Virus record (IMG/VR): IMGVR_UViG_3300025875_000003
Span: 1 to 64,000 of that record
DNA length: 64,000 nucleotides
Direction: 5' to 3' (one strand)
Source of the DNA: a virus
Below are positions 12,651 to 52,925 of this stretch, one piece after another (position 1 is the first letter of the stretch; each line of letters opens with the position of its first letter). The notes beneath the pieces were generated by a model that worked only from the letters and a program-made list of their open reading frames with translations, was not told the DNA's origin and ran no database searches. The translations under genes were made by a program, and so were the position numbers.

Positions 12651-12680
12651 GTTGCACTAGCATCCTGACTGCGCTATGGT
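12651..12680 (+). promoter_or_regulatory. repeat promoter copy 1
   Basis: TTGCAC-17-TATGGT. Confidence 0.8.
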
Positions 12681-12717
12681 GGTCTCCTGAGCAAGCACGA
12701 GAACTGAGGAGACCACC

Positions 12718-12894
12718 ATGGTTGCTGACTTGATCGAGACACTGCTGGATCTCGCTGACGACCCGAGCGGTCGCAGAGAGACGGAGACCACCGAGGCGCT
12801 GCGCGAGGCTGCGGACGCTCTTCTGAAGGCACAGGTGCGGGAGACCAACCTGCGCGACGAGTACCAGCAGTACGCTGCACGTGCCGCGCGTTGA
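12718..12894 (+). CDS. hypothetical protein (58 aa)
   Basis: SD GAGGAG; first gene after promoter. Confidence 0.65.
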   Translation: MVADLIETLLDLADDPSGRRETETTEALREAADALLKAQVRETNLRDEYQQYAARAAR

Positions 12895-12962
12895 CTTTGG
12901 TTTCTTGATCCCATAGGCGTATCACTACTGACTGACCCACTGATCCCACGGAGGATGCACCA

Positions 12963-14120
12963 ATGAGCACTGTCACTCTTGACCAGATGCGCAGCAAGTT
13001 GCTGAGCGTCGATGATGTTCGTCAGCGTCTGGCGGTTACGGAGCCGCTGTCGCAGGAGCACGTCACGTCCGACTCGAACATTCGCTTCACGTTCCCGGAG
13101 GGCTGGAATGCTGATCTTGACGAGATCGGAGGCACCGACCGTACGGCTGTTCTGATGCGCGTCAACGGTGTCGAGAAGCCCATGACCAAGGATGCTGCTC
13201 TCATCGCCGCTTCCAATGTTGGCCTGCCGGGCGCATACGTGAAGAAGACGCCCGGCCCGCTGGTCGAGCAGCACATGAATTACTGGTACGGCGTGGGCAT
13301 GGGCGAGAAGGCATACAACGTCCTGACCGTGGGCGAGGACGTGGCCGCGTTCGTCAAGCCTACCATCGTCCCGTTCTCGAATCTTGCTCTGCTGGACTCC
13401 ACCATCGAGGGTATCCAGCGCCACTACGGAGCCGACACCGAGATCCTGGCTGACTACAAGATTCGCCACAACCTGGGGCGCACTGATGTGCGTCTCATCG
13501 TGCCAGAGCACCAGCGGACCATCACGGGTGGCGGCCTGAATGATGTTCCGAGTGGTGAGGCTGACCTGTGGAGCGCTGGGATCACCTTGACCAACTCCCT
13601 GATCGGTAAGTCTCAGACCGCCGTTGAGGGCAACCTGTTCCGGTGGTGGTGCACGAACGGAGCAACCACGACCAACGCCGAGGTAGGCACGTGGAGCCGC
13701 CGTAGCGGGGGCCAGGGCGAGGATGTGTACGTTTGGGCTGCTGAGGCCGTGGACGAGGTTCTGGGCGGCATGGAGCACCGTTTTGACGAGGTGCAGGCAC
13801 TGACTGGTCTCAACGTGGCAGGGAACACCGCTGATGTGCTGCGCGACATCTTCACGCAGTATCAGGTGCCCGTGAGCCAGCGTGAGGCTGTGACCAACGC
13901 GCTGCTGGAATCGGAAAACCTAACCATGTACGCCATTATGAACGCCATCACGCAGACGGCCAACGGCTCGGAGATCTCCGCCGACCGCGCGGACCGCATG
14001 ATGCGTATCGGTGGAGCCGTGCCGACCGCCGCGTTCGACACGCTGAAGGCTCGGGTCTGGGACGAGGGCCACACCGCGCCTGTCGAGGTTGCTAACCCGT
14101 ACGTCATCGCGGCTGCCTGA
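12963..14120 (+). CDS. DUF932-like protein with C-terminal WDEG...NPY motif
   Basis: AGITLTNSLIG...FRWWCTNG resembles DUF932; SD GGAGG. Confidence 0.6.
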   Translation: MSTVTLDQMRSKLLSVDDVRQRLAVTEPLSQEHVTSDSNIRFTFPEGWNADLDEIGGTDRTAVLMRVNGVEKPMTKDAALIAASNVGLPGAYVKKTPGPLVEQHMNYWYGVGMGEKAYNVLTVGEDVAAFVKPTIVPFSNLALLDSTIEGIQRHYGADTEILADYKIRHNLGRTDVRLIVPEHQRTITGGGLNDVPSGEADLWSAGITLTNSLIGKSQTAVEGNLFRWWCTNGATTTNAEVGTWSRRSGGQGEDVYVWAAEAVDEVLGGMEHRFDEVQALTGLNVAGNTADVLRDIFTQYQVPVSQREAVTNALLESENLTMYAIMNAITQTANGSEISADRADRMMRIGGAVPTAAFDTLKARVWDEGHTAPVEVANPYVIAAA

Positions 14121-14302
14121 TGGGTCCGTGCTTGGTCGAGGGCTGCGGCTGCCGCACACCTGAGGAGAAGATTGCTGCGGTACGGCGGGCAGTGGCCAGG
14201 AAGACCGCAGCACGCCTCCCGGCAGGGTTCTGGCTCTCTGAGGCAGCCATCGCTACGGGTACTCTGTTGGCCGTATTCTTGTCCTGACCAGCATGAACGC
14301 TC

Positions 14303-14342
14303 ACAGCGGCACGTCTCTTGAAACTGAGGGGCGTGCCGCTGT
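14303..14342 (+). terminator. hairpin abutting promoter copy 2
   Basis: ACAGCGGCACG / CGTGCCGCTGT 11-bp arms. Confidence 0.6.
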
Positions 14343-14370
14343 TGCATATGCTGCCTGTCTGCGCTAATGT
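14341..14370 (+). promoter_or_regulatory. repeat promoter copy 2
   Basis: TTGCAT-17-TAATGT. Confidence 0.8.
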
Positions 14371-14397
14371 GGTCTTACTGGACCTGAGGAGGACACC

Positions 14398-14712
14398 ATG
14401 AGTGAGACTCGAACTGACGATCTTCGCATAGGAGATTTTGTTCCCGGCTGTGGGACAGTGCTTGCGCTTGTCCCTCTCCCCGAGCAGGGGAGCACGGAGA
14501 TCACATGGAGTTCAAACTTCGGAGAAGTGGTTTCTTCGAACGACTCCACGTGGCTTGGCGTGATGGTTTCGGTCGATAGGCCGCTCACCGCCACGCTGGA
14601 TGACGCTGCCCGCGACCGCGCGGTGGCTGCGCTTGTGGCCAGTCGGGGTCTTTCCAAGGGCCAGGCCGAGGACGTACTGAACACCATCTTCGCTGCTCTG
14701 AAGGGAGCCTGA
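14398..14712 (+). CDS. hypothetical protein
   Basis: GAGGAGGACACC-ATG. Confidence 0.75.
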   Translation: MSETRTDDLRIGDFVPGCGTVLALVPLPEQGSTEITWSSNFGEVVSSNDSTWLGVMVSVDRPLTATLDDAARDRAVAALVASRGLSKGQAEDVLNTIFAALKGA

Positions 14713-15490: not shown

Positions 15491-15520
15491 GTTGCGTATG
15501 TCGCTTGGTTGCGCTAGGCT
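15491..15520 (+). promoter_or_regulatory. repeat promoter copy 3
   Basis: TTGCGT-17-TAGGCT. Confidence 0.8.
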
Positions 15521-16447: not shown

Positions 16448-16477
16448 GTTGCGCATGTTGCTTGGTTGCGCTAGGCT
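16448..16477 (+). promoter_or_regulatory. repeat promoter copy 4
   Basis: TTGCGC-17-TAGGCT. Confidence 0.8.
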
Positions 16478-17628: not shown

Positions 17629-17658
17629 GTTGCGCATGTTGCGTGACTGCGCTACTGT
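17629..17658 (+). promoter_or_regulatory. repeat promoter copy 5
   Basis: TTGCGC-17-TACTGT. Confidence 0.8.
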
Positions 17659-18730: not shown

Positions 18731-18770
18731 GCGCGAGCGGGCTGCGAGAACATTCGTGGCCCGCTCGTGT
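18731..18770 (+). terminator. hairpin abutting promoter copy 6
   Basis: GCGAGCGGGC / GCCCGCTCGT arms. Confidence 0.55.
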
Positions 18771-18798
18771 TGCATCTGTCGCATGGTTGCTCTAGAGT
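18769..18798 (+). promoter_or_regulatory. repeat promoter copy 6
   Basis: TTGCAT-17-TAGAGT. Confidence 0.8.
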
Positions 18799-19583: not shown

Positions 19584-19613
19584 GTTGCACATGTCGCATG
19601 GCTGAGTTAGACT
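19584..19613 (+). promoter_or_regulatory. repeat promoter copy 7
   Basis: TTGCAC-17-TAGACT. Confidence 0.8.
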
Positions 19614-19619
19614 CAAAGC

Positions 19620-19748
19620 ATGACGACGAACCAAGCAGTCGAGATCGAGATGGTCCCTCGCTTGTGGACCGAGCAGCACATCACGGCGTACCTCATTCGG
19701 TACTACGTTCGTACCGCTCGCCGCGTCATCCGTAACCAGTACCGCTGA
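19620..19748 (+). CDS. 42-aa protein, probably leaderless mRNA
   Basis: ATG 7 nt after the -10 box, no SD. Confidence 0.55.
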   Translation: MTTNQAVEIEMVPRLWTEQHITAYLIRYYVRTARRVIRNQYR

Positions 19749-19759
19749 GGAGAAGAATC

Positions 19760-20074
19760 ATGGCTAAGAATAAGCACCCCTACGCCGTTCGCCAGCAGAG
19801 GTCCGGCTACACCGGCCAGGTGTCCTACATCGTCGTCCTGAACCCTGGCGGAAGACGCGTGTCCGTTCACGCCATGTCCCGCGAGCAGGCCCAGGCATCT
19901 GCTGACGGTCTGAACATTGGGGCCATGGTGAAGGACTACGCGGACGATCCCCGTCCGTACGCGGAGCGCCTGGCAGAGGCGCAGGCGTTGCATGCCCGGG
20001 AACAGGAGATTGAGCGTCTTGCCGCGTTCGTCCGTACGCGCAAGCCCGCCGAGGGCGGAGGAGAAGAATCGTGA
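19760..20074 (+). CDS. hypothetical protein
   Basis: GAGGAGAAGAATC-ATG. Confidence 0.75.
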   Translation: MAKNKHPYAVRQQRSGYTGQVSYIVVLNPGGRRVSVHAMSREQAQASADGLNIGAMVKDYADDPRPYAERLAEAQALHAREQEIERLAAFVRTRKPAEGGGEES

Positions 20075-20253
20075 CCGGCTGGCTGATCGCAGGACTGGTT
20101 ATCGGGCTGCTGTGCATCCCGTTCTGGGTAGAGGCCGACAAGAACCCCGAGACGTGGGGGAGAAGCCATCCTCTGGGCCACCTGTGGCATCTTTCTCATC
20201 GCTATGTGCGGCGGAGGACTGATCTTCGCGTAAGGGTTGCACATGTCGCTTGA
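20071..20253 (+). CDS. small membrane protein
   Basis: GAGGAGAAGAATC-GTG; TM helix. Confidence 0.6.
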   Translation: MTGWLIAGLVIGLLCIPFWVEADKNPETWGRSHPLGHLWHLSHRYVRRRTDLRVRVAHVA

Positions 20254-20265
20254 CTGCGCTAGAGT
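20236..20265 (+). promoter_or_regulatory. repeat promoter copy 8
   Basis: TTGCAC-17-TAGAGT. Confidence 0.8.
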
Positions 20266-20303
20266 TGAGCCAACAGCACGAACCGAACACACCGGAGGTC
20301 ACC

Positions 20304-20531
20304 ATGAGCAACTACGCGGCGCAAGCAACGGGCTTCTCCCTCACCTCTGAGGACGTGCAGAACCTGCGAGAGGACTTCCCCATCGAGCGCATCGAGCGTC
20401 AGATGAACATCCGCGAGCGCCAGGCGTACATGGCCGAGACGGGTCGCAGCCTCGCTGAGGTGGTCGAGGCATCGACGGCTCAGATCACCAAGTTCCTGTC
20501 GGACGCCAACTACTCCAGCAGCAACAAGTGA
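20304..20531 (+). CDS. hypothetical protein
   Basis: SD GGAGG. Confidence 0.7.
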   Translation: MSNYAAQATGFSLTSEDVQNLREDFPIERIERQMNIRERQAYMAETGRSLAEVVEASTAQITKFLSDANYSSSNK

Positions 20532-20779
20532 TCCAGGCAGGCGGGTACCAGCGCGAGGTGGACGCAGAGCGCATCATGACGCCGCAGCAGCGTCGAGCGC
20601 TCGCCCACTTCAAGATTCACGAAGCCATGCGCCGGATAGGCACTGCCACGGCTCTGCGTGACGAGCACACCGCAGAGCACGGAGCCACCATCGCGTGCAA
20701 GTACGAGAAGGAGCGCACCGCGTGGGTCAAGCACCTGAGCGCTCTGCGGATCTACCGCGACAGCATCCCCAACGTCTGA
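20528..20779 (+). CDS. hypothetical protein
   Basis: GTGA overlap. Confidence 0.65.
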   Translation: MIQAGGYQREVDAERIMTPQQRRALAHFKIHEAMRRIGTATALRDEHTAEHGATIACKYEKERTAWVKHLSALRIYRDSIPNV

Positions 20780-20790
20780 GGAGAAGAATC

Positions 20791-21126
20791 ATGCAGCGTC
20801 GTCACACAGAGAGGCCCGCGGGATACAGCGTGTCTCACCTGGAGCCTGAGGAGCGGATCGCGCAACTGGAGCGCATGCTGGAGCGTGAGCGTGCCAAGGC
20901 CAAGCGTCACCGCACACGGCTGGCTGACGTGACCACGCGCATGGCTACCGAATGGGCTTCCCTCATCAGGGAGGGCATGGAGCGGGCATGGGAAGAGGGC
21001 TGGCAGGAGGGTATCGCACACGCCTCTAGCGTTAATCAGTCACCGACCGACCCGAGCCTGTGGGTCATCCCCGAGAAGAACCCGTACGCCACTGAGGAGA
21101 AGAATCATGGTCACCTGGCCCACTGA
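20791..21126 (+). CDS. coiled-coil protein with AWEEGW...NPY motif
   Basis: linker RBS; motif. Confidence 0.7.
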   Translation: MQRRHTERPAGYSVSHLEPEERIAQLERMLERERAKAKRHRTRLADVTTRMATEWASLIREGMERAWEEGWQEGIAHASSVNQSPTDPSLWVIPEKNPYATEEKNHGHLAH

Positions 21127-21358
21127 GAGCACTGTCCCCGTGACGCGCAACGCTCTTGCCTCTGCATGGGCGGAAGCCAACGGCTGGGCTGAGCATGGCT
21201 ACACCGAGGTTTCACGATCTTACTGGCGAGGCATGAGAGACACACTGGGAGTGCTGCTGGGCTACACCACCGAGCGGCCCACAGTCACGGGTCCGGGGGC
21301 CGACATCGCCGCTGACGTACTGCTGCGGCACCAACACCTGAGGAGCAGAGAAGCATGA
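21107..21358 (+). CDS. hypothetical protein
   Basis: linker RBS. Confidence 0.7.
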   Translation: MVTWPTESTVPVTRNALASAWAEANGWAEHGYTEVSRSYWRGMRDTLGVLLGYTTERPTVTGPGADIAADVLLRHQHLRSREA

Positions 21359-21567
21359 ACGAGATCTTGCGCGTCTACATGTCACGCGAAGAGTTGGACT
21401 ACCGAGGCACCATCCTGCCGAGAGAGTACGCGGTGCAGAACCAACACGGCATGGTGGTCGAGCGTTCCGAAGACCTGGCTGAGATTCGAGCCTACGTCGA
21501 TGCGCGCAAGACCGCAGATCCCAAGATCGGCGTCATCGACTTCACACAGCCACAGAGCAAGAATTGA
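21355..21567 (+). CDS. hypothetical protein
   Basis: ATGA overlap. Confidence 0.7.
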   Translation: MNEILRVYMSREELDYRGTILPREYAVQNQHGMVVERSEDLAEIRAYVDARKTADPKIGVIDFTQPQSKN

Positions 21568-21576
21568 GGAGCCGAC

Positions 21577-21840
21577 ATGAACACTAACGAGCGCTCTGCT
21601 GTCCGTACCGCGCTGATCGCACAGGGCTTCGCCCGCACGCACTACACGCAAGACTTCGGGGACGGCATCTACTCCGAGACGTGGACCCGCTACGAGCCGT
21701 CTGATCGACCGGGACAGCGTAGGATCGCCGCGAGCATCGTGCTTCAGTGGGGACCCAAGACCCCGGACAAGGCTGTTGTCCGCAGTGACGAGGACGTGGC
21801 CGAGTACACGCGCATCGAGCGTCCCACGTGGGTCTGCTGA
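21577..21840 (+). CDS. hypothetical protein
   Basis: SD GAGGAG. Confidence 0.7.
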   Translation: MNTNERSAVRTALIAQGFARTHYTQDFGDGIYSETWTRYEPSDRPGQRRIAASIVLQWGPKTPDKAVVRSDEDVAEYTRIERPTWVC

Positions 21841-21898
21841 ACCACTTAGACTTCTAGGGCTGGATAGCCCTCTGTCCCTACTTCCCGAAAGAAGAATC

Positions 21899-22126
21899 AT
21901 GAGTCCCAACGTCGAGGATCTGGCCGTTCAGGGATGCCACCGTTGCCGCTTGCTGGTCGAGGACATCCGTCTGGGTCGCTACACCCTCATGAACGCCATC
22001 AACATCAGACAGCAGACCACGAGGGCTGCGAGCATCGCCAAGGCTGACGCGCGTCTGGCCAAGGCGAAGGAAGGTCTCGCACACAACCGCGAGTACCTGC
22101 TGACTCACCTGGACGAGTCTCACTAG
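21899..22126 (+). CDS. hypothetical protein
   Basis: AGAAGAATC-ATG. Confidence 0.65.
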   Translation: MSPNVEDLAVQGCHRCRLLVEDIRLGRYTLMNAINIRQQTTRAASIAKADARLAKAKEGLAHNREYLLTHLDESH

Positions 22127-22130
22127 ATCC

Positions 22131-22160
22131 GTTGCGCATGTCGCATGACTGCGCTAGGCT
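22131..22160 (+). promoter_or_regulatory. repeat promoter copy 9
   Basis: TTGCGC-17-TAGGCT. Confidence 0.8.
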
Positions 22161-22193
22161 GGCACTACCAAGCCAACAGCACCGGAGGTCATC

Positions 22194-22331
22194 ATGATCG
22201 TTTTCGTTCGTTGGACCACAGCCGAGGGCGACACAGACTTCGCTCACCTCCCTAGCCGGAGCGCGGCAGCGCTCCGGGTGCGGGATCTGTTGAACGAGGG
22301 CGCAACTGACATCACAATTCGTCAGGACTGA
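22194..22331 (+). CDS. hypothetical protein (45 aa) upstream of kinase
   Basis: SD GGAGG. Confidence 0.6.
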   Translation: MIVFVRWTTAEGDTDFAHLPSRSAAALRVRDLLNEGATDITIRQD

Positions 22332-22337
22332 GGACTC

Positions 22338-23153
22338 ATGCACAAGATTCGGCTCATCGAGGGCGACGACGTTGGCACGCATGACGTGTGGATTCTGCGC
22401 GACACTAAAGGCACGCGGTACGCCTTCAAGCCTGTGTCCCACGAGCACCGCTGGCGCGCTGAGGTAGAGGCAGGTGCCAACAATCTTGCTCGCCTCTGGG
22501 GCTACCGCACTCCCGCAGCGCGTGTGGCTACCATCGACGGCGAGGACGGGCTTCTCATGCAGTTCGTGGAGCACCGGACATCTTTCCGAGGCATGCCGTA
22601 CTTCTCGATGCTCAGCGACGAGCAGATCGGACAGGTTGCGGCAGAGCACGTGCTGGACTGGATCTTGGACAACGATGACACGCATGCGTCGAATCTTCTG
22701 CTGGCCAACGACGGCGCAGTGGTGGGGATCGACAAGGGCCGCGCGTTCTTCGTCTACGGGAACTGGAACGGGCTGAGCGCTGACCACCGAGCCAACTCCA
22801 ACGCGCTGTTGGTCTACACGCGGCTGTACGAGGAGATCCGCATGGGTCGCATGACCGAGGAGCAGACCATGGTGGCCTACCAGGCTGCGATGACTGCGGC
22901 CCGCGTGATTCAAGATTCTGACGATGATGAGGTCGAGGCTTTGGTTCGCCAGGCCACGGCCAATCGCCCCAAGTGGAGCCGTCCGGGTTACATGACGCAC
23001 TACACCGACGAGCAGGCCCCGATCTGCCAGGACGACCTGATCTGTGCTCTGCTGGCCCGCAAGGCGTGGATCGTGACGGACATCGAGGAGATGTGGTGCC
23101 GCATCTTCGCGCGGTCCCCGTACTCCAAGCCGCGAAAGATGGTCCGAATCTGA
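22338..23153 (+). CDS. HipA/PI3-PI4-kinase-like protein kinase
   Basis: YAFKP, helix-C Glu, DWILDNDDTHASN, IDKG. Confidence 0.75.
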   Translation: MHKIRLIEGDDVGTHDVWILRDTKGTRYAFKPVSHEHRWRAEVEAGANNLARLWGYRTPAARVATIDGEDGLLMQFVEHRTSFRGMPYFSMLSDEQIGQVAAEHVLDWILDNDDTHASNLLLANDGAVVGIDKGRAFFVYGNWNGLSADHRANSNALLVYTRLYEEIRMGRMTEEQTMVAYQAAMTAARVIQDSDDDEVEALVRQATANRPKWSRPGYMTHYTDEQAPICQDDLICALLARKAWIVTDIEEMWCRIFARSPYSKPRKMVRI

Positions 23154-23154
23154 G

Positions 23155-23184
23155 GTTGCACTTGCTGCATGGCTGCGCTATGGT
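23155..23184 (+). promoter_or_regulatory. repeat promoter copy 10
   Basis: TTGCAC-17-TATGGT. Confidence 0.8.
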
Positions 23185-23215
23185 TGTCTTACTAGCCCGA
23201 ACCGAGGAGGACACC

Positions 23216-23401
23216 ATGAACACTGGCAGCATCTTGGTTCGTACGGTCGCAGCACTCTCGCACAAGCGACTGTCTGTGCGGCGCAGCGTGGGCTACCCGG
23301 ACACCGTGTGGATCACCGCTTCTGACGGCACGGGGAAGAAGATAGACGTGCAAGTGTACCGCGCTGACCTGCTGGCCGCTCTTGCTGCCAGCACTGACTA
23401 A
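23216..23401 (+). CDS. hypothetical protein
   Basis: GAGGAGGACACC-ATG. Confidence 0.7.
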   Translation: MNTGSILVRTVAALSHKRLSVRRSVGYPDTVWITASDGTGKKIDVQVYRADLLAALAASTD

Positions 23402-23412
23402 GGAGAAGAATC

Positions 23413-23583
23413 ATGGCTACCACCATGCTGCCCACCGCAGACGACATCCGAGCACAGGTGGCCGAGGAGATCGCACAGGCCATCGAGAAGCGGGCCGAGG
23501 GTCTGCACGAGACCAGTGACCAGCGGTGGACCTATGAGGCTTCCGCCCGTATCGCGCGGTCGTTCGCTACCCCCAAGCACTGA
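23413..23583 (+). CDS. hypothetical protein
   Basis: linker RBS. Confidence 0.65.
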   Translation: MATTMLPTADDIRAQVAEEIAQAIEKRAEGLHETSDQRWTYEASARIARSFATPKH

Positions 23584-23594
23584 GGAGAAGAATC

Positions 23595-23729
23595 ATGTTG
23601 GACGAACGAGCCATCTCCCTGCCTCCGTACATGCGCTGCGACTGCGGCAAGATCCACACCCGAGCCTTCATCAGCACGCTCTCGTTGTGCACGTGTGGTC
23701 GCAGACTCTGGGACATCATGTGGCGCTAG
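23595..23729 (+). CDS. small Zn-ribbon-like protein
   Basis: linker RBS; CDCG/CTCG. Confidence 0.6.
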   Translation: MLDERAISLPPYMRCDCGKIHTRAFISTLSLCTCGRRLWDIMWR

Positions 23730-23731
23730 GT

Positions 23732-23761
23732 GTTGCACATGCTGCATGACTGCGCTAGGCT
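23732..23761 (+). promoter_or_regulatory. repeat promoter copy 11
   Basis: TTGCAC-17-TAGGCT. Confidence 0.8.
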
Positions 23762-23792
23762 GTAGTCACTAGCCCGAACCGAGGAGGACACC

Positions 23793-24020
23793 ATGAGCGC
23801 ATACCGCACGCTGACCCGGACCCTGACCAACATGCATGCGTCCGAGCGAACGGCTTTCGATGCTTCCGACTCTTACAACTACACTCTGTCGCTCGTGAGC
23901 GCGGGTCGGGACGCCGAGGCCATTGCGATGGCACAGCAGTTTCGCACCTCTGAGGGTGACGACTGGCGCGCACGCGCCTTTGACGCTGGTCTCATTTCAA
24001 CCGCCGACTTCGTGAACTGA
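23793..24020 (+). CDS. hypothetical protein
   Basis: GAGGAGGACACC-ATG. Confidence 0.7.
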   Translation: MSAYRTLTRTLTNMHASERTAFDASDSYNYTLSLVSAGRDAEAIAMAQQFRTSEGDDWRARAFDAGLISTADFVN

Positions 24021-24031
24021 GGAGAAGAATC

Positions 24032-24238
24032 ATGGCTACTATCGAGACCGTTCCCGCGCAGTACACCGTCGTCCTGGACCAGACCGAGCGCGATGCTCTG
24101 GAGAGCGTGGTCATGCGAGCCGCCGTCCGAGACGGAGACTACAGCGAGGCCATGCGCCTGGCCGAGGCTCTGTTCTACGACAACAACCCTGAGGGTTTTT
24201 GGACCATGGTGGAGCGCTACCGTTCCTACAAGCACTGA
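24032..24238 (+). CDS. hypothetical protein
   Basis: linker RBS. Confidence 0.7.
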   Translation: MATIETVPAQYTVVLDQTERDALESVVMRAAVRDGDYSEAMRLAEALFYDNNPEGFWTMVERYRSYKH

Positions 24239-24250
24239 GGAGAAGAATCA

Positions 24251-24499
24251 ATGATCGGATTGCTCATTCTTGTCACGGTCTATCTTATCGTTATGGTTCT
24301 GACCTTCCGTCAGGGTGTGCGTTGGTATGACGCGGATGAAAGACGCCACGGTCGTCCGGGCGTTCAGGGATCGGACATGCCATACATCGCATTTCTTGCG
24401 CTGATCTGGCCCGGGGGTTTCTTCGCTCTAGGTCTGTGCTGCCATGCATGGAAGGGAGATCGATTCGTGAACGCAATCAAGCGCTGGTCGGGGGTCTGA
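24251..24499 (+). CDS. membrane protein (2 TM)
   Basis: linker RBS; two hydrophobic segments. Confidence 0.7.
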   Translation: MIGLLILVTVYLIVMVLTFRQGVRWYDADERRHGRPGVQGSDMPYIAFLALIWPGGFFALGLCCHAWKGDRFVNAIKRWSGV

Positions 24500-24699
24500 G
24501 AATCATGGCTGAGCACGTCAAGGGCTGCAATCGACGGCTGCTGGTCAAGTGGTCCGGCATGGCGTGCCGGTGTGGTGCTCGCTGGATCTGCCACTAATTC
24601 AAGAACCGGATCAACCGGACCCTCCACTATTAACAGAAATAACTAACTTCCTCTGTATGCGCTATGATGTAGTGACCCCATTACATCGGAGGCTGCTAA

Positions 24700-24921
24700 A
24701 TGTCGATTCGACTCTCTGTGTCCATGGCACTGGACGCTCTCGGTGACCAAGTGGTTGCGCTATCCGAGGCTGAGTCTGTGGTGGAGCAAGAGCGCGCACT
24801 GCGCGATGACATGATTCGTGACGCTAGAGAGTCTGGCATCGGTTACCGCACACTGACCAAGATCACAGGACTGTCCCGTGATCGCCTTTACACCATCGTC
24901 AACTCACCGAGCGGAGACTAA
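24700..24921 (+). CDS. HTH DNA-binding protein
   Basis: MIRDARESGIGYRTLTKITGLSRDRLYTIV. Confidence 0.7.
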   Translation: MSIRLSVSMALDALGDQVVALSEAESVVEQERALRDDMIRDARESGIGYRTLTKITGLSRDRLYTIVNSPSGD

Positions 24922-24923
24922 TC

Positions 24924-25109
24924 ATGAAGATTCACCTGACTGAGCCTATCGACCTTGATGACGAGCGCGTAGTTCAGGACGTACGCGGCAATGAGTTCTG
25001 CCGGGGTACGGATGAGGTGTGGTACTGGACCGCTTCGCGCATTGGCACGTTGTTAAGTCCTGAGCGCGCTATCGACATCGCTGATCACTACTACGCTATC
25101 GAGGACTGA
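24924..25109 (+). CDS. hypothetical protein, paralog of next gene
   Basis: N-terminus MKIHLTEPIDLD. Confidence 0.7.
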   Translation: MKIHLTEPIDLDDERVVQDVRGNEFCRGTDEVWYWTASRIGTLLSPERAIDIADHYYAIED

Positions 25110-25112
25110 CAC

Positions 25113-25247
25113 ATGGAGATTCACCTGACTGAGCCTATCGACCTGGACACCATCACGCCCGACGACGTTCTCACGGACGTGGACGGCTTTGAGTGGTTCC
25201 GCGATGCTGGCGGTACGTGGCAGATCATCCGACACGTGGAGGACTGA
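25113..25247 (+). CDS. hypothetical protein (44 aa), paralog of previous gene
   Basis: N-terminus MEIHLTEPIDLD. Confidence 0.65.
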   Translation: MEIHLTEPIDLDTITPDDVLTDVDGFEWFRDAGGTWQIIRHVED

Positions 25248-25248
25248 G

Positions 25249-25440
25249 ATGGACATCAAGCGCACTCCCGCCGAGTGGGAGCAGGTCACAGGTATTCGCA
25301 TCCTTGACCCTGACGGCTGGGACAGGAAGAATTTCGAGGTGGATTGGGCTATCCCGCTCACTGAGAAGGAATTCATCGCCAAGGCTTTCACGAGCACCAT
25401 CATCGACCGTTCGGGATACTTTGCGAGGAACGGATTGTGA
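25249..25440 (+). CDS. hypothetical protein
   Basis: SD GGAGG. Confidence 0.7.
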   Translation: MDIKRTPAEWEQVTGIRILDPDGWDRKNFEVDWAIPLTEKEFIAKAFTSTIIDRSGYFARNGL

Positions 25441-25604
25441 GCATGCATAGTCACGGCGTGCAGGGCAGGGTAGGTAAGTGGCTTGTCTGTCATTGTGGTG
25501 CAACTTTCCGTACCTTACGGGAACTGGTGGATCATATTCATGGTTCCGAGGAGGACACTCCTACTGTGCCTGCGTGGCTCGCTTCAGATCATTTCGAGGA
25601 CTAA

Positions 25605-26669
25605 GTGCTGACTTATCTTTCGATCCGCAATTATCAGTCACTGCATCACGTGGACCTCACCCTGTCCCCGTTCACTGTGATCGTCGGTCCCTCATCGAGT
25701 GGCAAGTCTGCGCTCACCCGTGCGCTGCGCACACTGGCCAACAACACACGAGGATCATCTTTTGTCTCTACGTGGGCTAAGCGCTCGGTCATCGAGGCAT
25801 CCTTTGCGCACCGTGGCACAGTCACGCTCACGCGCGGGGCAAAGACGGATGACAATTCCTACGTGCTCACTACTGAGCCTGACCTGCCCTCGCCCATGTT
25901 CACCAAGTTGGGTGGGGAGGTTCCCGAGGAGGTCTCAGCATTCTTGGGCATTGATTCTTCTATCACGTTCGCTGACCAGTTCGACAGGCCCTACCTGCTG
26001 GCTGACTCAGCGTCTGAGGTAGCACGCACCTTCGCTGCACTGACCAACGTGCACACGGTCTTCGCTGCGGCACGTGAGGCCAATAGGACACGCCTGGAGC
26101 GCTCAGGACGGCACAAGATCCGTCTAGCGGACCTGGAGGGCATCAAGGCACAGAGAGAGGCTTTCAAGGCCCTTGGTGTGCGTCTGGCTAAGCAGCGTGA
26201 GGCTGAGATCCGGCTGGGTCGTGCACAGTCTCTGAATGAGCAGACAGACAGGCTGATCCTGTGGGCTCAGCAGTTGAGTAGAGCCAATGAGTTCATCGAG
26301 GCAACATTAAGAATCTTGTCCAAGCCTGTGCCATCCCTAGATCGTGTCGAGGATCTGGACTCACAGTCCCGCTACATCCGGCATCATCTGGGTCTCATCG
26401 AGGCCTATGACGAGATCATTGAGCGCACCCTGTGGGATCGAGATGTACCTAGTCTCACAGCAGCAGAGCAGGCACACACAGCGCTGACTAACTATCGCGC
26501 TGCACTAGTGCGTATCAAGAAAAGCAAGACTGCGCTTATCGATGCTACTGTGATCCTGGAAGAAGAAACGTACGCACTACAGGCAGCACAGGAGCATTAT
26601 CAAGAGGAACTGTCTGCGCTAGGTCACTGCCCTACATGCGGTCAAGACACTACACACATTCACGCCTGA
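25605..26669 (+). CDS. Rad50/SbcC-like ATPase, N-terminal half ending at the zinc hook
   Basis: IRNYQS, GPSSSGKS, coiled coil, C-terminal CPTCG. Confidence 0.8.
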   Translation: MLTYLSIRNYQSLHHVDLTLSPFTVIVGPSSSGKSALTRALRTLANNTRGSSFVSTWAKRSVIEASFAHRGTVTLTRGAKTDDNSYVLTTEPDLPSPMFTKLGGEVPEEVSAFLGIDSSITFADQFDRPYLLADSASEVARTFAALTNVHTVFAAAREANRTRLERSGRHKIRLADLEGIKAQREAFKALGVRLAKQREAEIRLGRAQSLNEQTDRLILWAQQLSRANEFIEATLRILSKPVPSLDRVEDLDSQSRYIRHHLGLIEAYDEIIERTLWDRDVPSLTAAEQAHTALTNYRAALVRIKKSKTALIDATVILEEETYALQAAQEHYQEELSALGHCPTCGQDTTHIHA

Positions 26670-26694
26670 CGGCGACTACGCACTGAGGAGAATT

Positions 26695-26844
26695 ATGAGT
26701 GACAACTCTAATGTTCTGAACGATGTCATCGCTGAGATTAAGCGTAAGTCTCAGAACGGTTGGGTAACTGTGAGAACGGATGATCTGATCGGTGCGCTTC
26801 GTCAGGTTCAGGCTCACCTTCGTAACGAGGAAAATCATGACTGA
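26695..26844 (+). CDS. hypothetical protein (49 aa)
   Basis: SD GAGGAG. Confidence 0.55.
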   Translation: MSDNSNVLNDVIAEIKRKSQNGWVTVRTDDLIGALRQVQAHLRNEENHD

Positions 26845-27112
26845 GATCACTCGTGCAGAGCAAAGGGCTGCGCTGGAGTCCATGCAAGATTACGTACAGG
26901 CCCAGATCAACGCCACGTTGGAGCACGCTGACAAGGATGGCTACGTGGCCATTAGCGCACAGACAGTAGCGGACACACTGAGCCGTCTGGCCAACATGCT
27001 GACCAACGTGGCTTATGACCTATGGGACGCACAGGACACCATTTCGGATCTGCGTGCACAGATCGAGTCTTTGGATGTGGACGGCACAGACCACTACTAT
27101 GAGGATGACTGA
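26837..27112 (+). CDS. hypothetical protein
   Basis: SD GAGG. Confidence 0.7.
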   Translation: MTEITRAEQRAALESMQDYVQAQINATLEHADKDGYVAISAQTVADTLSRLANMLTNVAYDLWDAQDTISDLRAQIESLDVDGTDHYYEDD

Positions 27113-27115
27113 CAC

Positions 27116-27385
27116 ATGAGCGCATCTAGCCAAGCGGTCCCGACTACGGTCGAGATGATCGATGGAATCATTAGTGACATCATGTTTCGAGGTCTGCCTA
27201 GCGATAACGCCGATCTGGTCATCGGGCTGCTAGGATCACTGTGCGATGGGATGAAGGTGCTAGCCGCTGAGGTGAATACGCTGGAATCTTCCCTGTCTTC
27301 GCTCTCGCAGGCATGGGACGAGGGCTATACCGCATCTGCGCAGGACGCTATCGACGGCACAGGAGGAGTGAATCCCTATGCCTGA
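27116..27385 (+). CDS. protein with AWDEGY...NPY motif
   Basis: TGACACATG coupling; motif. Confidence 0.7.
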   Translation: MSASSQAVPTTVEMIDGIISDIMFRGLPSDNADLVIGLLGSLCDGMKVLAAEVNTLESSLSSLSQAWDEGYTASAQDAIDGTGGVNPYA

Positions 27386-27641: not shown

Positions 27642-27852
27642 CACGAGGCAATCACTACAGGTGGCCATAGAGGACGCTTTGATGGCTCAGTGGGCCGATG
27701 GGGCACGGGCAGGCGTTGGGGCGCTTACAGGTGCCGTAGAAGCCGTCCTGAGGGCACAGGAGCAGGCACTGCACTACAGCATCCCTACTGACGTAGTGAG
27801 AGCAGCGCTGCGGGAAGTATCCGAGGGCTTGATTCAAGAAATGGAGCGCTGA
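27634..27852 (+). CDS. hypothetical protein
   Basis: overlap with upstream stop. Confidence 0.65.
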   Translation: MADTRQSLQVAIEDALMAQWADGARAGVGALTGAVEAVLRAQEQALHYSIPTDVVRAALREVSEGLIQEMER

Positions 27853-27855
27853 CAC

Positions 27856-39277: not shown

Positions 39278-39441
39278 TGAAAAATACAGAACTAGAAATC
39301 TCTAGACTCTGGCACGAGTCTGAGTGGACCACATTCATGGCCGAAGACGGATGCATGAGTATTGCCATGAACACGGAGGAGGATCGAGTTCTAGACTTCG
39401 CTAGAGCGTTAGGCGTTGAGGTAGTTGCACCTGTAGCCTGA
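39277..39441 (+). CDS. hypothetical protein
   Basis: TAATG coupling. Confidence 0.6.
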   Translation: MKNTELEISRLWHESEWTTFMAEDGCMSIAMNTEEDRVLDFARALGVEVVAPVA

Positions 39442-39453
39442 TTGCGCTATGCT
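39424..39453 (+). promoter_or_regulatory. repeat promoter copy 17
   Basis: TTGCAC-17-TATGCT. Confidence 0.8.
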
Positions 39454-40550: not shown

Positions 40551-40586
40551 CGCCGCTGCCGCTTGGTCGGTAGCGGCGACTTTTTT
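40551..40586 (+). terminator. intrinsic terminator
   Basis: CGCCGCTGCC / GGTAGCGGCG stem followed by T6. Confidence 0.75.
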
Positions 40587-40595
40587 CCTCATCTG

Positions 40596-40625
40596 GTTGC
40601 ATATGTAGCCTGACTGCACTAGGAT
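40596..40625 (+). promoter_or_regulatory. repeat promoter copy 18
   Basis: TTGCAT-17-TAGGAT. Confidence 0.8.
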
Positions 40626-43361: not shown

Positions 43362-43524
43362 AGTATTTTCAATTGCTCTTGCCCTTCCTTCGATCCCCAC
43401 GATTATTGCTTTTGTTTTATGTCTTTATCGCATTGTGCGCCTGGAGCATAAGACACAAGAACTAGCACGCCGCATCGACAGACATCACCCAACTCCGAAG
43501 AGGGAGAATAATGCCTCGGGGTAA
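43354..43524 (+). CDS. small membrane protein
   Basis: TM helix. Confidence 0.6.
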   Translation: MIEVFSIALALPSIPTIIAFVLCLYRIVRLEHKTQELARRIDRHHPTPKRENNASG

Positions 43525-43906
43525 TAACTACCGACAAAATCCTCATCAGTTGACTGACAGGCAGATTGAGATTTTTCGTTTGGCGAGTCAGGGCCTTTCC
43601 AACAGAGAGATTGGTGAAAAGATCTATGTGGTGGAAAATACCGTAGACACCCATCTTCGCTTGGGATATAAGAAACTGGGTACCAGCAGTAGGGCAGGAG
43701 CCATTGCACTAGGTATTCGAGAGGGTTGGATTCCTCTACATACGGGTGACGATCTGCTAGAAGATGCTGCTATCCGTCTTTACTGCCACATCTACTTCAA
43801 TGGCAGTGACGCAGGAGCCGATGACTTCGGCATGGAACCCGAAGATTTGAAGGAACAGATGCGTGGATTGGCTCGTGCGGCCCTAAACATCAAGGAAAAC
43901 TCATGA
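43511..43906 (+). CDS. LuxR/GerE-type HTH transcription regulator
   Basis: LTDRQIEIFRLASQGLSNREIGEKIYVVENTVDTHLRLGYKKLG..SRAGA. Confidence 0.85.
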   Translation: MPRGNNYRQNPHQLTDRQIEIFRLASQGLSNREIGEKIYVVENTVDTHLRLGYKKLGTSSRAGAIALGIREGWIPLHTGDDLLEDAAIRLYCHIYFNGSDAGADDFGMEPEDLKEQMRGLARAALNIKENS

Positions 43907-46916: not shown

Positions 46917-46948
46917 CAGGCCCTTCATCCTTCGGGGTGGAGGGCCTG
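46917..46948 (+). terminator. UUCG-loop hairpin abutting promoter copy 19
   Basis: CAGGCCCTTCATCC-TTCG-GGGTGGAGGGCCTG. Confidence 0.7.
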
Positions 46949-46977
46949 TTGCATATGTAGCATGACTACGCTACTGT
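46948..46977 (+). promoter_or_regulatory. repeat promoter copy 19
   Basis: TTGCAT-17-TACTGT. Confidence 0.8.
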
Positions 46978-48855: not shown

Positions 48856-48885
48856 GTTGCGTATGACGCTTGACTGCACTAGGCT
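48856..48885 (+). promoter_or_regulatory. repeat promoter copy 20
   Basis: TTGCGT-17-TAGGCT. Confidence 0.8.
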
Positions 48886-50097: not shown

Positions 50098-50901
50098 ATG
50101 AGTATGGTTAACAAGTATGCAGTAGCAGTAGGTATCAACAACTACCCAGGCACTGGTTCTGACCTTCGAGGTTGCGTTAACGACGCCATCGATTGGACAG
50201 ACCATCTCTCGTCTTTGGGATACAAGGTGCTGACCCTTACAGATGAGCAGGCTACCAAGACAGCAGTCACTAGCGCTCTGCGTGAAATGATGGCCATGGC
50301 CCGGTATCGAGATAAGGTCGTGTTCACCTACTCTGGCCACGGCTCCTGGGTTCCTGACAGGGGAGGCGATGAGGCTGACAGCCGAGATGAGGTCTTGGTT
50401 CTTCATGATTTCGACCGTGGAGGGCTACTTTCGGACGACGAGATGAATACGATTTTTTCCAATCGTCGTTTTGGTGTTAAGCCCACTGTTATCTCGGATT
50501 CTTGTCATTCGGGTACCCTGACAGATGTTCGTGGACTAGAGGCTGTGCGAACTTTGAAGCATTCTGTGGTGGACGCTGCTCCTCGCTTTCTCTCTCCGTC
50601 TCACTTCCTTGCGTCAGAGGACGTTCCTGCGGCACTAGAAGTCGAATCTAAGGCTCCCAGGGGGGCATCTAGACCTACCACCGCTCTTTTGTCGGGCTGT
50701 GACGACCCTGAATTTTCTTACGATGCATACATCGATGGCCGTTATCGAGGAGCATTCACAGCAGCCGCTTTGAAGACGTGGGTTCCTGGCATTACTTTGA
50801 GAAAGTGGCATGAAGCGATTAGGCTTTACCTACCTTCTAACCAGTACCCACAAAGCCCCCAGATTGGTGCAACGTACCCCCAGCGGTTCTGGACTCTCTA
50901 A
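50098..50901 (+). CDS. metacaspase-like cysteine protease (peptidase C14)
   Basis: AVGINNY, LRGCVND, catalytic SGHG and DSCHSG, GAFT. Confidence 0.9.
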   Translation: MSMVNKYAVAVGINNYPGTGSDLRGCVNDAIDWTDHLSSLGYKVLTLTDEQATKTAVTSALREMMAMARYRDKVVFTYSGHGSWVPDRGGDEADSRDEVLVLHDFDRGGLLSDDEMNTIFSNRRFGVKPTVISDSCHSGTLTDVRGLEAVRTLKHSVVDAAPRFLSPSHFLASEDVPAALEVESKAPRGASRPTTALLSGCDDPEFSYDAYIDGRYRGAFTAAALKTWVPGITLRKWHEAIRLYLPSNQYPQSPQIGATYPQRFWTL

Positions 50902-50931
50902 GTTGCACATGTAGCATGGTTGCGCTATCCT
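50902..50931 (+). promoter_or_regulatory. repeat promoter copy 21
   Basis: TTGCAC-17-TATCCT. Confidence 0.8.
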
Positions 50932-50963
50932 GAAAGTCAAAGACGATCTTCAGGAGGACAACC

Positions 50964-51602
50964 ATGAGCACTGTCAAGGCACGCCGCTGGATGTGGATTG
51001 ATTTTGAAGCAACGGGACTGTCCGAGGGCAACGACTTCTCTAGGGTTCACCCGATGGAGGTCGGAATCATTCTGACGGACTTCAACCTCAATCGACTCGC
51101 GGGGTACACCGAGGTAGTCAAGATGCACCCGGCCATGGCTGAGCAGATCAGGGCAAACAAGTTCGTGCGAGAGATGCACACCAAGAGTGGCCTGATTCGA
51201 GATTCAGTGAAGAACGCCACTCTAAGCCTGCCTGAGATCGAAAACGAGATCATTGACATGCTTCAAGAGTTTGGGGAGCCCGGAGAGTTTCAAATCGCAG
51301 GCTCTGGCGTGGCTGCCTATGACTTCCCTCTGATCAAGCAGTGGATGCCCAATCTCGCTGTCTGGCTGGACTACTCACCTGCTGACATCGGCATCATGCG
51401 GCGCATGGCGTCTCGCCTGGTGGGTAAGGAAATCGTCACCCATACGCCTGCGTCCTACGGTGCGGAGAAGTTGCATCGGGCTATGCAGGATGTTGAGGGA
51501 CATCTGGAAGAGACGCAGAAGTATCAGGAAGTGCTGCGGGCCGCGTTCCTAACCGAGTCGCAGGTGGATGACCGGATTCAAGACGTGGAGGAGATCTTGT
51601 GA
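50964..51602 (+). CDS. orn: oligoribonuclease (DEDDh)
   Basis: WIDFEATGL, EVGIILTD, MHTKSGL, AGSGVAAYD, HRAMQD. Confidence 0.8.
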   Translation: MSTVKARRWMWIDFEATGLSEGNDFSRVHPMEVGIILTDFNLNRLAGYTEVVKMHPAMAEQIRANKFVREMHTKSGLIRDSVKNATLSLPEIENEIIDMLQEFGEPGEFQIAGSGVAAYDFPLIKQWMPNLAVWLDYSPADIGIMRRMASRLVGKEIVTHTPASYGAEKLHRAMQDVEGHLEETQKYQEVLRAAFLTESQVDDRIQDVEEIL

Positions 51603-51871
51603 GCAGAGAAGATTTTGTCAGTACGCGGGCCAAGGTGACGGTCATCTTTGATCTGCCTACCGGAGAGAAGTACACGCTGACGGTTCCCGATGTGGTGGAC
51701 GTGAAGGTGACACAGCAGTGGCGTTACGGCAATCCCTTCACGTCACTAGGCGTCGAGAGTCTGGCGTTCGTGGCCGAGACTCTGGAAGGCATGGCTATCC
51801 AGTTTCTGCCCCTTCCTGATGCTAGGGGAGGTGGGTACTTCAGCCTGGTCAAGGATCTGCGCCCTCGCTGA
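51599..51871 (+). CDS. hypothetical protein
   Basis: GTGA overlap. Confidence 0.65.
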   Translation: MSREDFVSTRAKVTVIFDLPTGEKYTLTVPDVVDVKVTQQWRYGNPFTSLGVESLAFVAETLEGMAIQFLPLPDARGGGYFSLVKDLRPR

Positions 51872-51872
51872 G

Positions 51873-51902
51873 GTTGCACATGTCGCTTGACTACGCTACT
51901 GT
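51873..51902 (+). promoter_or_regulatory. repeat promoter copy 22
   Basis: TTGCAC-17-TACTGT. Confidence 0.8.
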
Positions 51903-51925
51903 TGACTTAGACGCACGAACCGACG

Positions 51926-52873
51926 ATGAAAGACAAGGTGATTGATATGTGGATCTTCATGCCGGGCGGACTCCTGATGCCCGCCGCTGTGCCTATGGAC
52001 AAGGTTGACGCCAAGTGGACGAACGGCGGTGAGTGGAACCTTCAGGTCCGGGCGCGCACTCTCAGTCACCTCACAAACTTCATCCGGGACTACATGACCG
52101 AGGGTGACTACTCTGAGATCCAGAGCACTCCGGAGATGGACTACAACTACCGCTTCTACACCTCCAAGAAGGCGTTCGCCACGGGCATGGCCATGGCTAT
52201 GCTGGAGATCGATTACTATAAGTTCAAGCCCACGGCTGAGGACACGTACGAAGATGGCACGCTGAAGTACATGGATGGCAAGGAGTACCACAGCGTGCTG
52301 AACAGCATCTGGGGCACGGTCTGCCGTCTGGGTCTTCCCGGAGGCAAGTGGGCCAAGGGTGGGTCTGCTTGGGACGATGCAATTTCCAAGTACTCAGGCA
52401 AGCGCTATGGTGAAGCGCGTTCCAACCGCGACTGGCTGGATGCCTACAACGACATGCTGGACAGCCGGGGTCGTTGGGAAGACTCCACCGAGGAGGGCAC
52501 GTCCCAGGTTCCTCTCGGGGACGACTCTGTGTGGCAGGAGGAGACCGAGCATCACGGCATGACGGAGTTCGCGGCTCGCTGGCTGGAGGATGACGACTAT
52601 GAGCCGGACAGCCACACTCGCAAGGAAATGATTCTGGCCAAGGTAGAGGATCTTCCTGCCTCTCAGTGGGATGACTGGCTGTACCCCGATGAGATGGAGA
52701 TCGTCTCTTACGAGTACCAGAAGGCTCTGGTAAACGAGCGTGAGCGTGCTCGTCGGTTCCGTGAGAGCGTGCAGGAGTCGGTCAAGACGGTCGGCAAGGA
52801 TCGCAAGAAGAACCGCAAGCCGAGTAAGGCTAGCCGCCAGACGGTACGCCGGACCAGGCACGCGGCACGCTGA
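51926..52873 (+). CDS. hypothetical protein (LQVRAR...DYNYR...IDYYKFK N-terminal domain)
   Basis: long ORF with native codon bias; start uncertain. Confidence 0.75.
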   Translation: MKDKVIDMWIFMPGGLLMPAAVPMDKVDAKWTNGGEWNLQVRARTLSHLTNFIRDYMTEGDYSEIQSTPEMDYNYRFYTSKKAFATGMAMAMLEIDYYKFKPTAEDTYEDGTLKYMDGKEYHSVLNSIWGTVCRLGLPGGKWAKGGSAWDDAISKYSGKRYGEARSNRDWLDAYNDMLDSRGRWEDSTEEGTSQVPLGDDSVWQEETEHHGMTEFAARWLEDDDYEPDSHTRKEMILAKVEDLPASQWDDWLYPDEMEIVSYEYQKALVNERERARRFRESVQESVKTVGKDRKKNRKPSKASRQTVRRTRHAAR

Positions 52874-52895
52874 GTGAAGTTGCCTAGCGCAGTTG

Positions 52896-52925
52896 GTTGC
52901 ACATGTTGCCTGACTGCGCTAGGCT
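52896..52925 (+). promoter_or_regulatory. repeat promoter copy 23
   Basis: TTGCAC-17-TAGGCT. Confidence 0.8.

Follow-up and report, generated by a model that had tools for sequence, protein, structure and literature searches.

The first 64,000 bases of the IMG/VR virus record IMGVR_UViG_3300025875_000003 (124,313 bp), which we refer to as the window, contain between 12.6 and 53.5 kb a region of small genes in which a 30-bp, promoter-like element recurs before gene starts on the + strand. We call this family class E. The ends of the record overlap by ~120 bp, and the assembly is therefore circular. The genome is of siphovirus type and encodes a portal, a major capsid protein, a tape measure, a family A DNA polymerase and a RecA/UvsX-like recombinase. 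Its closest cultured relative is Microbacterium phage Magritte (OR553905, 133 kb), with which it shares gene order and 74% amino-acid identity in the major capsid protein and 46% in the DNA polymerase. A related capsid gene was found at 168 IMG/VR loci, several of them on contigs of 125-141 kb. Given the nearest cultured relative and these capsid loci, the host is probably an actinobacterium. For comparison we used Magritte and the relatives G001, G002 and G008, with G003 added for one shared promoter.

We searched the window with the pattern TTGCR-N18-TANNNT, which leaves the spacer free, and obtained 24 matches against 1.82 expected and a maximum of 5 in 100 shuffles. Twenty-three of the matches were on the + strand, all with a common spacer, and the sole match on the - strand (17297) lacked it. 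The 23 are exactly the + strand sites listed in an initial annotation of the window, and our recount reproduced its tallies for the -35 (TTGCAC 11, TTGCAT 6, TTGCGC 3, TTGCGT 2, TTGCGA 1) and the -10 (TAGGCT 8, TACTGT 5), as well as the constant spacer of 17 bp. The G that it placed before every -35 is present at 22 of the 23 sites and is an A at 30921. The whole-genome motif scan that it called for was run with a weight matrix, which recovered the 23 sites and two more beyond the window, at genome positions 119268 and 120582. These 25 sites scored 35-47 bits, the next match 13.9, and none was found on the - strand; the family is discrete, with no decayed copies. The motif holds 37.9 bits in total, ~20.7 of which are in the spacer. 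Every site precedes a gene start, as had been stated. The copies in the window are given below, with coordinates that start at the base preceding the -35.

12651-12680 (+): class E copy 1, -35 TTGCAC, 17-bp spacer, -10 TATGGT; the most divergent spacer, 35.0 bits
14341-14370 (+): class E copy 2; strong hairpin abutting the -35, -29.8 kcal/mol
15491-15520 (+): class E copy 3
16448-16477 (+): class E copy 4
17629-17658 (+): class E copy 5; 27-nt leader identical to that of copy 2
18769-18798 (+): class E copy 6; strong hairpin abutting the -35, -31.3 kcal/mol
19584-19613 (+): class E copy 7; ATG at 19620 on the predicted +1, leaderless 42-codon frame
20236-20265 (+): class E copy 8
22131-22160 (+): class E copy 9; top score, 46.7 bits; heads a 45-codon frame and the PI3/PI4-kinase-like gene
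23155-23184 (+): class E copy 10
23732-23761 (+): class E copy 11; opens the longest unit, with ~21 crudely called genes
30046-30075 (+): class E copy 12
30921-30950 (+): class E copy 13; A replaces G before the -35
32553-32582 (+): class E copy 14
34501-34530 (+): class E copy 15
37048-37077 (+): class E copy 16
39424-39453 (+): class E copy 17
40551-40625 (+): intrinsic terminator (40551-40584, 11-bp stem and T run) followed by class E copy 18 (40596-40625)
46948-46977 (+): class E copy 19; strong hairpin abutting the -35, -27.2 kcal/mol
48856-48885 (+): class E copy 20
50902-50931 (+): class E copy 21; follows the caspase-domain gene and heads the RNase T-like exonuclease gene
51873-51902 (+): class E copy 22
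52896-52925 (+): class E copy 23; heads the isochorismatase-family gene

When the first T of TTGC is numbered -35, the -10 hexamer falls at -12 to -7. A class E cassette then comprises G(-36), the -35 TTGCAY (-35 to -30), the 17-bp spacer, the -10 TANNNT and a pyrimidine(-1)/A(+1) pair, after which come a leader of 21-32 nt with GAGGAGG and an ATG. All 25 copies have TTGC, a spacer of exactly 17 bp and TA...T, as expected of SigA hexamers with a spacing of 16-18 bp. Six nucleotides past the -10 there is a pyrimidine (25/25) and at seven nucleotides an A (19/25), the usual -1/+1 pair. A start codon with its ribosome-binding site (GAGGAGG) lies 27-38 nt past the -10 in 21 copies, and in 14 the stop codon of the preceding gene ends 1-5 nt before G(-36). 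In the copy whose -35 begins at 19585, the predicted +1 coincides with the A of the ATG that opens a 42-amino-acid frame, so this transcript would be leaderless. A strong hairpin adjoins the -35 in six of the 25, and only one copy has the T run of a classical terminator. Since this anatomy fits promoters and little else, we consider it very likely that the class E sites are promoters. The first genes after each copy showed no mutual similarity at E<=1e-3; they are not paralogues, so the repeat appears to be regulatory, and we rejected the possibility that it is part of duplicated genes. An RNA element was also rejected, the consensus fold of 23 copies having a free energy of -0.31 kcal/mol and no covariation.

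The spacer is more conserved than a promoter needs. Over the 23 sites that had been found without reference to the spacer, the numbers of non-consensus bases at positions 6 to 22 were 7, 3, 0, 5, 13, 2, 0, 15, 0, 0, 10, 8, 0, 2, 1, 5 and 1. This unevenness was never reached in 100,000 random placements (five invariant positions, P<1e-5). The invariant bases are G-27, C-23, T-21, G-20 and T-17 (G8, C12, T14, G15 and T18 by position), while -25 and -22 (positions 10 and 13), position 16 and the interior of the -10 (positions 25-27) are close to saturation. Variation confined to a few positions, with others that never vary, points beyond recent copying as the only cause: particular positions of the spacer are under purifying selection. 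Local gene conversion was rejected as a sole cause, as similarity of the cores was not linked to genomic neighbourhood (Mantel r ~0). There is also evidence that the cassette spreads, perhaps by recombination and duplication, within this fast-changing region: leaders of neighbouring copies are weakly more alike than those of distant ones (P=0.025), the leaders of the copies at 14342 and 17630 are identical, and haplotypes are present in the -10 interior and the discriminator.

We then asked what the conserved spacer resembles. An extended -10 would have T-15 and G-14, and in class E -15 is C in 24 of 25 copies and -14 is G in 20 of 25. T-17 and G-16 are conserved in place of TGn, so that the likeness is partial only. 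An extended -10/-16 region is known from Gram-positive promoters, and T-17, G-16 and G-14 may form an imperfect version of this RNA polymerase contact. To our knowledge, no polymerase or SigA contact covers the block from -28 to -20. It is likely that the spacer contains a site for a regulator. One can make out GTTGC, GTCGC and ACTGC in the consensus, at intervals of 9 and 8 bp; these would be the three GTYGC-like units in which the initial annotation saw an operator or activator site for one phage protein. Its view that the spacer is conserved beyond promoter needs held up, and the single-protein site found no further support, there being no stand-alone copy, convincing dyad or regulator tied to the sequence. 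A restriction-site explanation for the palindromes TGCA, CATG and GCGC within the motif was rejected, since these are not avoided genome-wide.

We also searched for the class E motif in other sequences. It was not found in a phage collection (megablast), in IMG/VR, in Magritte or in five related contigs; the full motif was absent from one genome each of 185,579 species, and in metagenomes the matches listed included only single, chance-level ones. Four relatives have promoter families of their own. G002 has ~10 copies of TTGACA-18-TAAGCT, G008 has ~12 copies of ..CACCGTGAC..GTG-TAACGT with 17-bp spacing, and Magritte has ~11 copies, of the forms cTTGTGC-GTTAGCGCGTgACGTGc-aATAAT (17) and TTGCnC-N9-CGGTTAGCGCG-TATnAT (18). 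These families have only TTGnnn, the 17-18-bp spacing and TAnnnT in common with class E, and the conserved spacer is specific to each. We looked for a relative close enough to map insertions and deletions and found none; the RecA-neighbour search gave as its sole match a 61%-identical locus with transfer RNA (tRNA) genes where the promoters would be.

One further promoter is shared across the group. A 30-bp SigA-type sequence, TTGCAnATGTCACCCCTC...GCTATGnTC, lies at genome positions 66843-66871 (-) and at 56571-56599 of G002, and is also present in G003. Twenty-five of its 30 bases are common to this phage, G002 and G003, flanks and downstream genes are unrelated, and its 5' half is that of class E; in G002 it precedes the gene for an extracytoplasmic function (ECF)-like sigma factor.

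The phage itself encodes two predicted sigma factors and has two other promoter-like motif classes, M and L.

588-1226 (+): phage sigma factor of ECF-like fold, 212 amino acids; candidate reader of class M, not class E
12894-12926 (+): class M promoter-like site, ACTTTG-N18-CGTATCACT, within the class E region; the genome has five full copies
Genome 70730-70765, 111253-111285, 113716-113751 and 67415-67450 (-): the other full class M copies
28109 and 35594: partial class M copies in the window
55416-55426 (+): class L (late-type) site in the window
Genome 73403, 80284, 89381, 96235, 108077 and 109149: the other class L sites

The frame at 588-1226 has 289 homologue clusters, and 13 of 72 aligned members match Sigma70_r2. 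Its profile found the ECF factor RpoE first in the PDB, and its structure model (pLDDT 92) matched sigma factors only, ECF types first. Magritte gp60 is a homologue, and the ECF-like sigmas of the relatives are 33-39% identical. Those of G002 and Magritte are encoded behind SigA-type promoters. In our phage, the 141 bp before the gene (447-587) contain a weak SigA-like pair, TTCGCA-18-TAAGAT. After it, at 540-580, a GC-rich hairpin and a T-rich run stand directly before the ribosome-binding site and could be an attenuator. The second sigma gene (genome 112982-113716), directly after a helicase gene, aligned over its full length to FliA/WhiG models (E 9e-16), above the sigma-70 superfamily cut-off, and is 39% identical to the syntenic Magritte gp47, which is annotated merely as 'DNA binding protein'.

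Class M has the form ACTTTC-N18/19-(G)GCGTATCACTAGT-ATG (also as GGCGTATCACTAGT-ATG), carries CGT at -12 to -10 and is in most cases leaderless. Its sites stand before replication and regulator genes, in the clamp-loader, helicase/FliA-like sigma and primase-helicase blocks, with one more site at 12918. Its CGTATCAC part is common to Magritte, where the sites read GCGTATCAC-N4-ATG. Class L, TGGTCGATAGT, occurs six times exactly and once with a single mismatch; each site precedes a virion or lysis block, and some of them are leaderless (..acgagtATG). Its GTCGATAG resembles the sigma-28 -10, GCCGATAA. The Magritte counterpart, gg[CT]CGATATCC (also written gg[CT]CGATATCCCTGa), is found at equivalent places before virion genes. 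In Magritte the three motif classes are TTGTGC/GTTAGCGCG, CGTATCAC and CCGATATCC. The -10 elements of alternative sigmas (CGT for ECF, GCCGATAA for sigma-28) are not those of class E, which has TAnnnT.

Three observations make it likely that class E is read by the host SigA as an early class. The relatives' families keep only TTGnnn and TAnnnT in common while their spacers differ; the two sigmas of the phage are better matched to the other motifs; and a -10 with just T, A and the final T fixed marks SigA in Actinobacteria, where such sites commonly retain only TAnnnT (PMC8635444). A search for a T7-type RNA polymerase, another possible reader, gave no PF00940 match, a weak negative since control genomes gave none either. 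The initial annotation had proposed a SigA regulon driven by strong early promoters. The promoter anatomy and the comparison with relatives agree with SigA-type promoters at the head of a large set of accessory genes; promoter strength drew no support from our results.

All 25 copies are in variable accessory regions. The region from 12.6 to 53.5 kb has 112 genes (crude + strand calls) with a mean length of 100 amino acids, and only 9 of them (8%) have homologues in Magritte, G001, G002 or G008, compared with 18 of 30 (60%) among replication-block genes and 24 of 32 (75%) among those of the virion block. The initial annotation had seen no class E site in the replication or tail blocks, and we found none in the replication block (1-12.6 kb) or the virion block. 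The description 'phage-wide' was too broad, since the family reaches no further than the variable accessory region, and replication and virion genes have two promoter classes of their own. Class E units hold 1-21 genes, with a median of 3. Recognisable cargo includes a PI3/PI4-kinase-like protein (22338-23153), a dNMP kinase, a dCMP deaminase, a metallophosphoesterase, SbcC- and SbcD-like proteins, a caspase-domain (peptidase C14) protein (50098-50901), an RNase T-like exonuclease, an isochorismatase-family protein, an HNH nuclease and the following candidate regulator.

43511-43906 (+): LuxR/GerE-type helix-turn-helix protein (GerE 47.4 bits) in the class E region; candidate spacer-binding regulator

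This protein had been among the regulators suggested beforehand and keeps its place as a candidate. The frame at 588-1226, also suggested, is the ECF-like sigma and more likely serves another promoter class. For the frames at 24700, 31604 and 36645, the family search gave no usable match.

From these results we propose, with moderate confidence, that the 25 sites are host-SigA start cassettes for the early stage of a lytic-type programme, that of host takeover, and that the spacer is a site for a lineage-specific factor. Host RNA polymerase would most likely fire class E straight after injection, because the parts shared with the relatives' families are the ones that SigA reads. The ~110 small accessory genes would be made as nested, overlapping transcripts, because class E sites directly follow the preceding stop codon, mostly with no terminator between. 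The -28 to -20 block (TG..GC.TG) would be bound by the lineage-specific factor, which would turn the early set off, or adapt the polymerase, once the phage sigmas take over. Class E is thus probably the first, host-read tier of a three-step programme, in which host SigA would read class E and a few single promoters, the ECF-like sigma the class M replication promoters, and the FliA-like sigma the class L virion promoters. We infer each of these sigma-to-class assignments from motif resemblance.

Several observations weigh against this proposal. The hexamers match the E. coli consensus TTGACA/TATAAT at only 6 of 12 positions, and a consensus scanner calls none of the sites. At ~38 bits the motif is far above ordinary SigA promoters and more typical of promoters for alternative sigmas or phage polymerases. 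A genome scan with a matrix of the spacer by itself gave, apart from the 25 sites, no match above shuffle level. Nor does the spacer show a clear dyad or a regular repeat, and no binding protein or regulator could be assigned to it. Lineage-specific spacers could also come from founder effects. The terms 'promoter', 'early' and 'SigA' all rest on the logic of the sequence.

The main rival to a lineage-specific factor, itself a best guess, is that the spacer has no reader of its own: a founder promoter would have spread, and its spacer would be kept by concerted evolution together with intrinsic polymerase contacts (the extended -10-like TGCGC, spacer shape and twist), the promoters being ordinary SigA early ones. 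We regard this as possible and clearly less probable. It would account for the leaders common to neighbouring cassettes, including the identical pair, for the haplotypes in the -10 interior and discriminator, for spacers that differ from relative to relative, as founder effects would yield, and for the failure to find either a stand-alone spacer site or a dyad; T-17, G-16 and G-14 are, moreover, located where we take extended -10/-16 contacts to form. However, gene conversion would homogenise all positions, and those at 10, 13, 16 and 25-27 are near saturation while five are invariant. Nor does core similarity follow neighbourhood, and no SigA contact is known to cover the -28 to -20 block. 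If the polymerase instead carried the ECF-like sigma (588-1226) or some other modification, class E would be a middle class; we think this improbable. The high information content, the strict 17-bp spacing, the poor match to the E. coli consensus and the presence of two phage-encoded sigmas would all suit it, as the first two are typical of alternative-sigma regulons. Yet a -10 reduced to T, A and the last T is characteristic of recognition by group 1-type factors and not by ECF ones, the relatives' families keep TTGnnn/TAnnnT although their ECF-like sigmas have diverged so far, and the two other promoter classes already suit the two phage sigmas. The SigA-type promoters before the ECF-like sigma genes of G002 and Magritte further imply that something host-read comes first.

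Two other explanations have little probability. The spacer could be a 'sigma adaptation' site for a host factor with the -26 geometry of PafBC, by which the early genes would be wired to a host stress activator. The PafBC motif of actinobacterial DNA-damage promoters is tGTCgg(N10)tA(N3)T; it has a strictly conserved GTC and no -35, its 5' part occupies -28 to -23, and its -26 element is read by a helix-turn-helix factor wedged between the DNA and sigma domain 4 (PMC8635444). The class E consensus, TGTCGC at -28 to -23 and N10 before TANNNT, has the same geometry and the same SigA -10 context, and the phage has no WYL-domain protein of its own. Against this, GTC is present in just 12 of 25 copies, the invariant bases of class E differ from the PafBC determinants, class E has an invariant TTGC -35, and the full motif did not occur among the species searched. 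We therefore rejected class E as a PafBC promoter and consider a host stress activator very improbable; PafBC is a possible working analogy, not a matter of membership, though it demonstrates that recognition within the spacer occurs at SigA promoters of Actinobacteria. Slightly less probable still is that the sites are not promoters at all, and are instead recombination or cassette-insertion sites, 'stoperator'-type roadblocks or RNA processing signals. They do lie at gene junctions in a region of rapid gene turnover, CTGAGG flanks several of them on both sides, and asymmetric repressor sites in one orientation are known in Cluster A mycobacteriophages (PMC9283540). But TTG, 17 bp, TAnnnT, pyrimidine-A and a ribosome-binding site at fixed canonical distances would be unexpected for a recombination or roadblock site, and the flat consensus fold argues against a conserved RNA structure.

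Among known systems, the nearest kind is the promoter-early stem-loop (PeSL) cassette of T4-type phages, which combines a promoter with a stem-loop terminator and has an AT-rich upstream part (PMC2839356, PMC4122927); the placement is the same and the role in gene turnover likely so. In both, many near-identical early promoters of host-sigma type lie on one strand, in hyperplastic regions rich in ORFans, and are absent from core modules, and the cassettes show signs of moving, or being duplicated, along with genes. Class E differs in that most copies abut the preceding stop codon and lack an AT-rich upstream element, in that so few copies have a hairpin and T run that a stem-loop is not a regular part of it, in its presumed Gram-positive, high-G+C host, and in the position-specific selection on its spacer. 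Repeated intergenic motifs have been described in Gordonia phages CaiB (cluster DR; PMC9302106) and Vardy (cluster DJ; PMC9671010), and halovirus HF2 has intergenic repeats that carry promoters (PMC8707807). These too are short conserved blocks at fixed distances before several phage genes, regulatory by proposal or demonstration, but they number 5-9 copies, unlike the 25 of class E with full SigA geometry and a start-site dinucleotide, and the CaiB blocks, at -4 to -40 from the start codon, are not described as -35/-10 pairs. The stoperators of Cluster A mycobacteriophages, which are temperate, are 13-14-bp repressor sites that block elongation (PMC9283540, PMC6550527). Like class E, they are asymmetric sites present by the dozen in one orientation across an actinophage genome, through which one protein could control many units; unlike class E, whose conserved bases are inside promoters, they are mostly not promoter-embedded, and neither an integrase nor a repressor was recognised in this phage.

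Sigma cascades are well known from large lytic phages, as in SPO1 with gp28 and gp33/34 and T4 with AsiA/MotA and gp55. The progression from host-sigma early to phage-sigma middle and late transcription would be matched here by three motif classes and two phage sigma genes. Unlike those of SPO1 and T4, the sigmas are ECF-like and FliA/WhiG-like and belong to an actinophage, and their pairing with motifs comes from motif resemblance alone. Repeated early-promoter families are thus already known in phages, and only the conserved spacer is unusual.

The 25 copies are natural promoter variants with few free positions and with invariant spacer bases in common, which makes them a clean set for testing. 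A factor that reads the spacer, if there is one, would act as a compact master switch for early phage genes in Actinobacteria, a group in which such spacer-internal control (sigma adaptation) has been described only recently. A wider form of the idea, which we put forward tentatively, is that each lineage of these 125-140-kb actinophages has a protein reading a lineage-specific spacer element of its host-SigA early promoters. If so, the system would be either a phage counterpart of sigma adaptation or shut-off by a repressor bound to the spacer. The one protein would switch ~110 early genes together and evolve in concert with the spacer, which would isolate the early programme of each lineage from those of its relatives. 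If the spacer is a mere legacy of copying, the result is ordinary. The two phage sigmas and their motifs complete a predicted three-tier transcription programme that is open to bench testing, as the group includes Magritte, cultured on M. foliorum. For annotation, the class E motif marks the transcription-unit boundaries and start codons of many ORFan genes.

A second repeat, CTGAGGAGAAGAATCATG, which combines a stop codon, a ribosome-binding site, a fixed gap of 7 nt and an ATG, joins 12-18 small genes within class E units. It spans window positions 19745-32390 (for example 19745, 20776, 21092, 23580, 24017, 24235, 31148 and 31589), and promoter-proximal genes carry GAGGAGGACACCATG instead. 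Beyond the window, an array of 18 tRNA genes (genome 68100-70731) lies behind a diverged class E-like promoter, TTGCACATCGAGCAGCACTGCACTATGAT (13.9 bits); one of its members, at 70393-70476, has a CUA anticodon and would read the stop codon TAG. A divergent pair of helix-turn-helix genes, at genome positions 66800-67414 (-) and 67869-68078 (+), stands beside the only block of - strand genes (64063-67414) and may encode switch or regulator proteins.

Within the tape-measure gene, a tandem repeat has a period of 57 bp (genome 101070-101480). The tetranucleotide AGCT occurs once in the whole genome, at position 81494, against ~456 expected, and not at all in G008 (359 expected), while its counts are normal in G001, G002 and Magritte. 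This scarcity suggests that two lineages avoid the site of an AluI-type restriction system present in their hosts.

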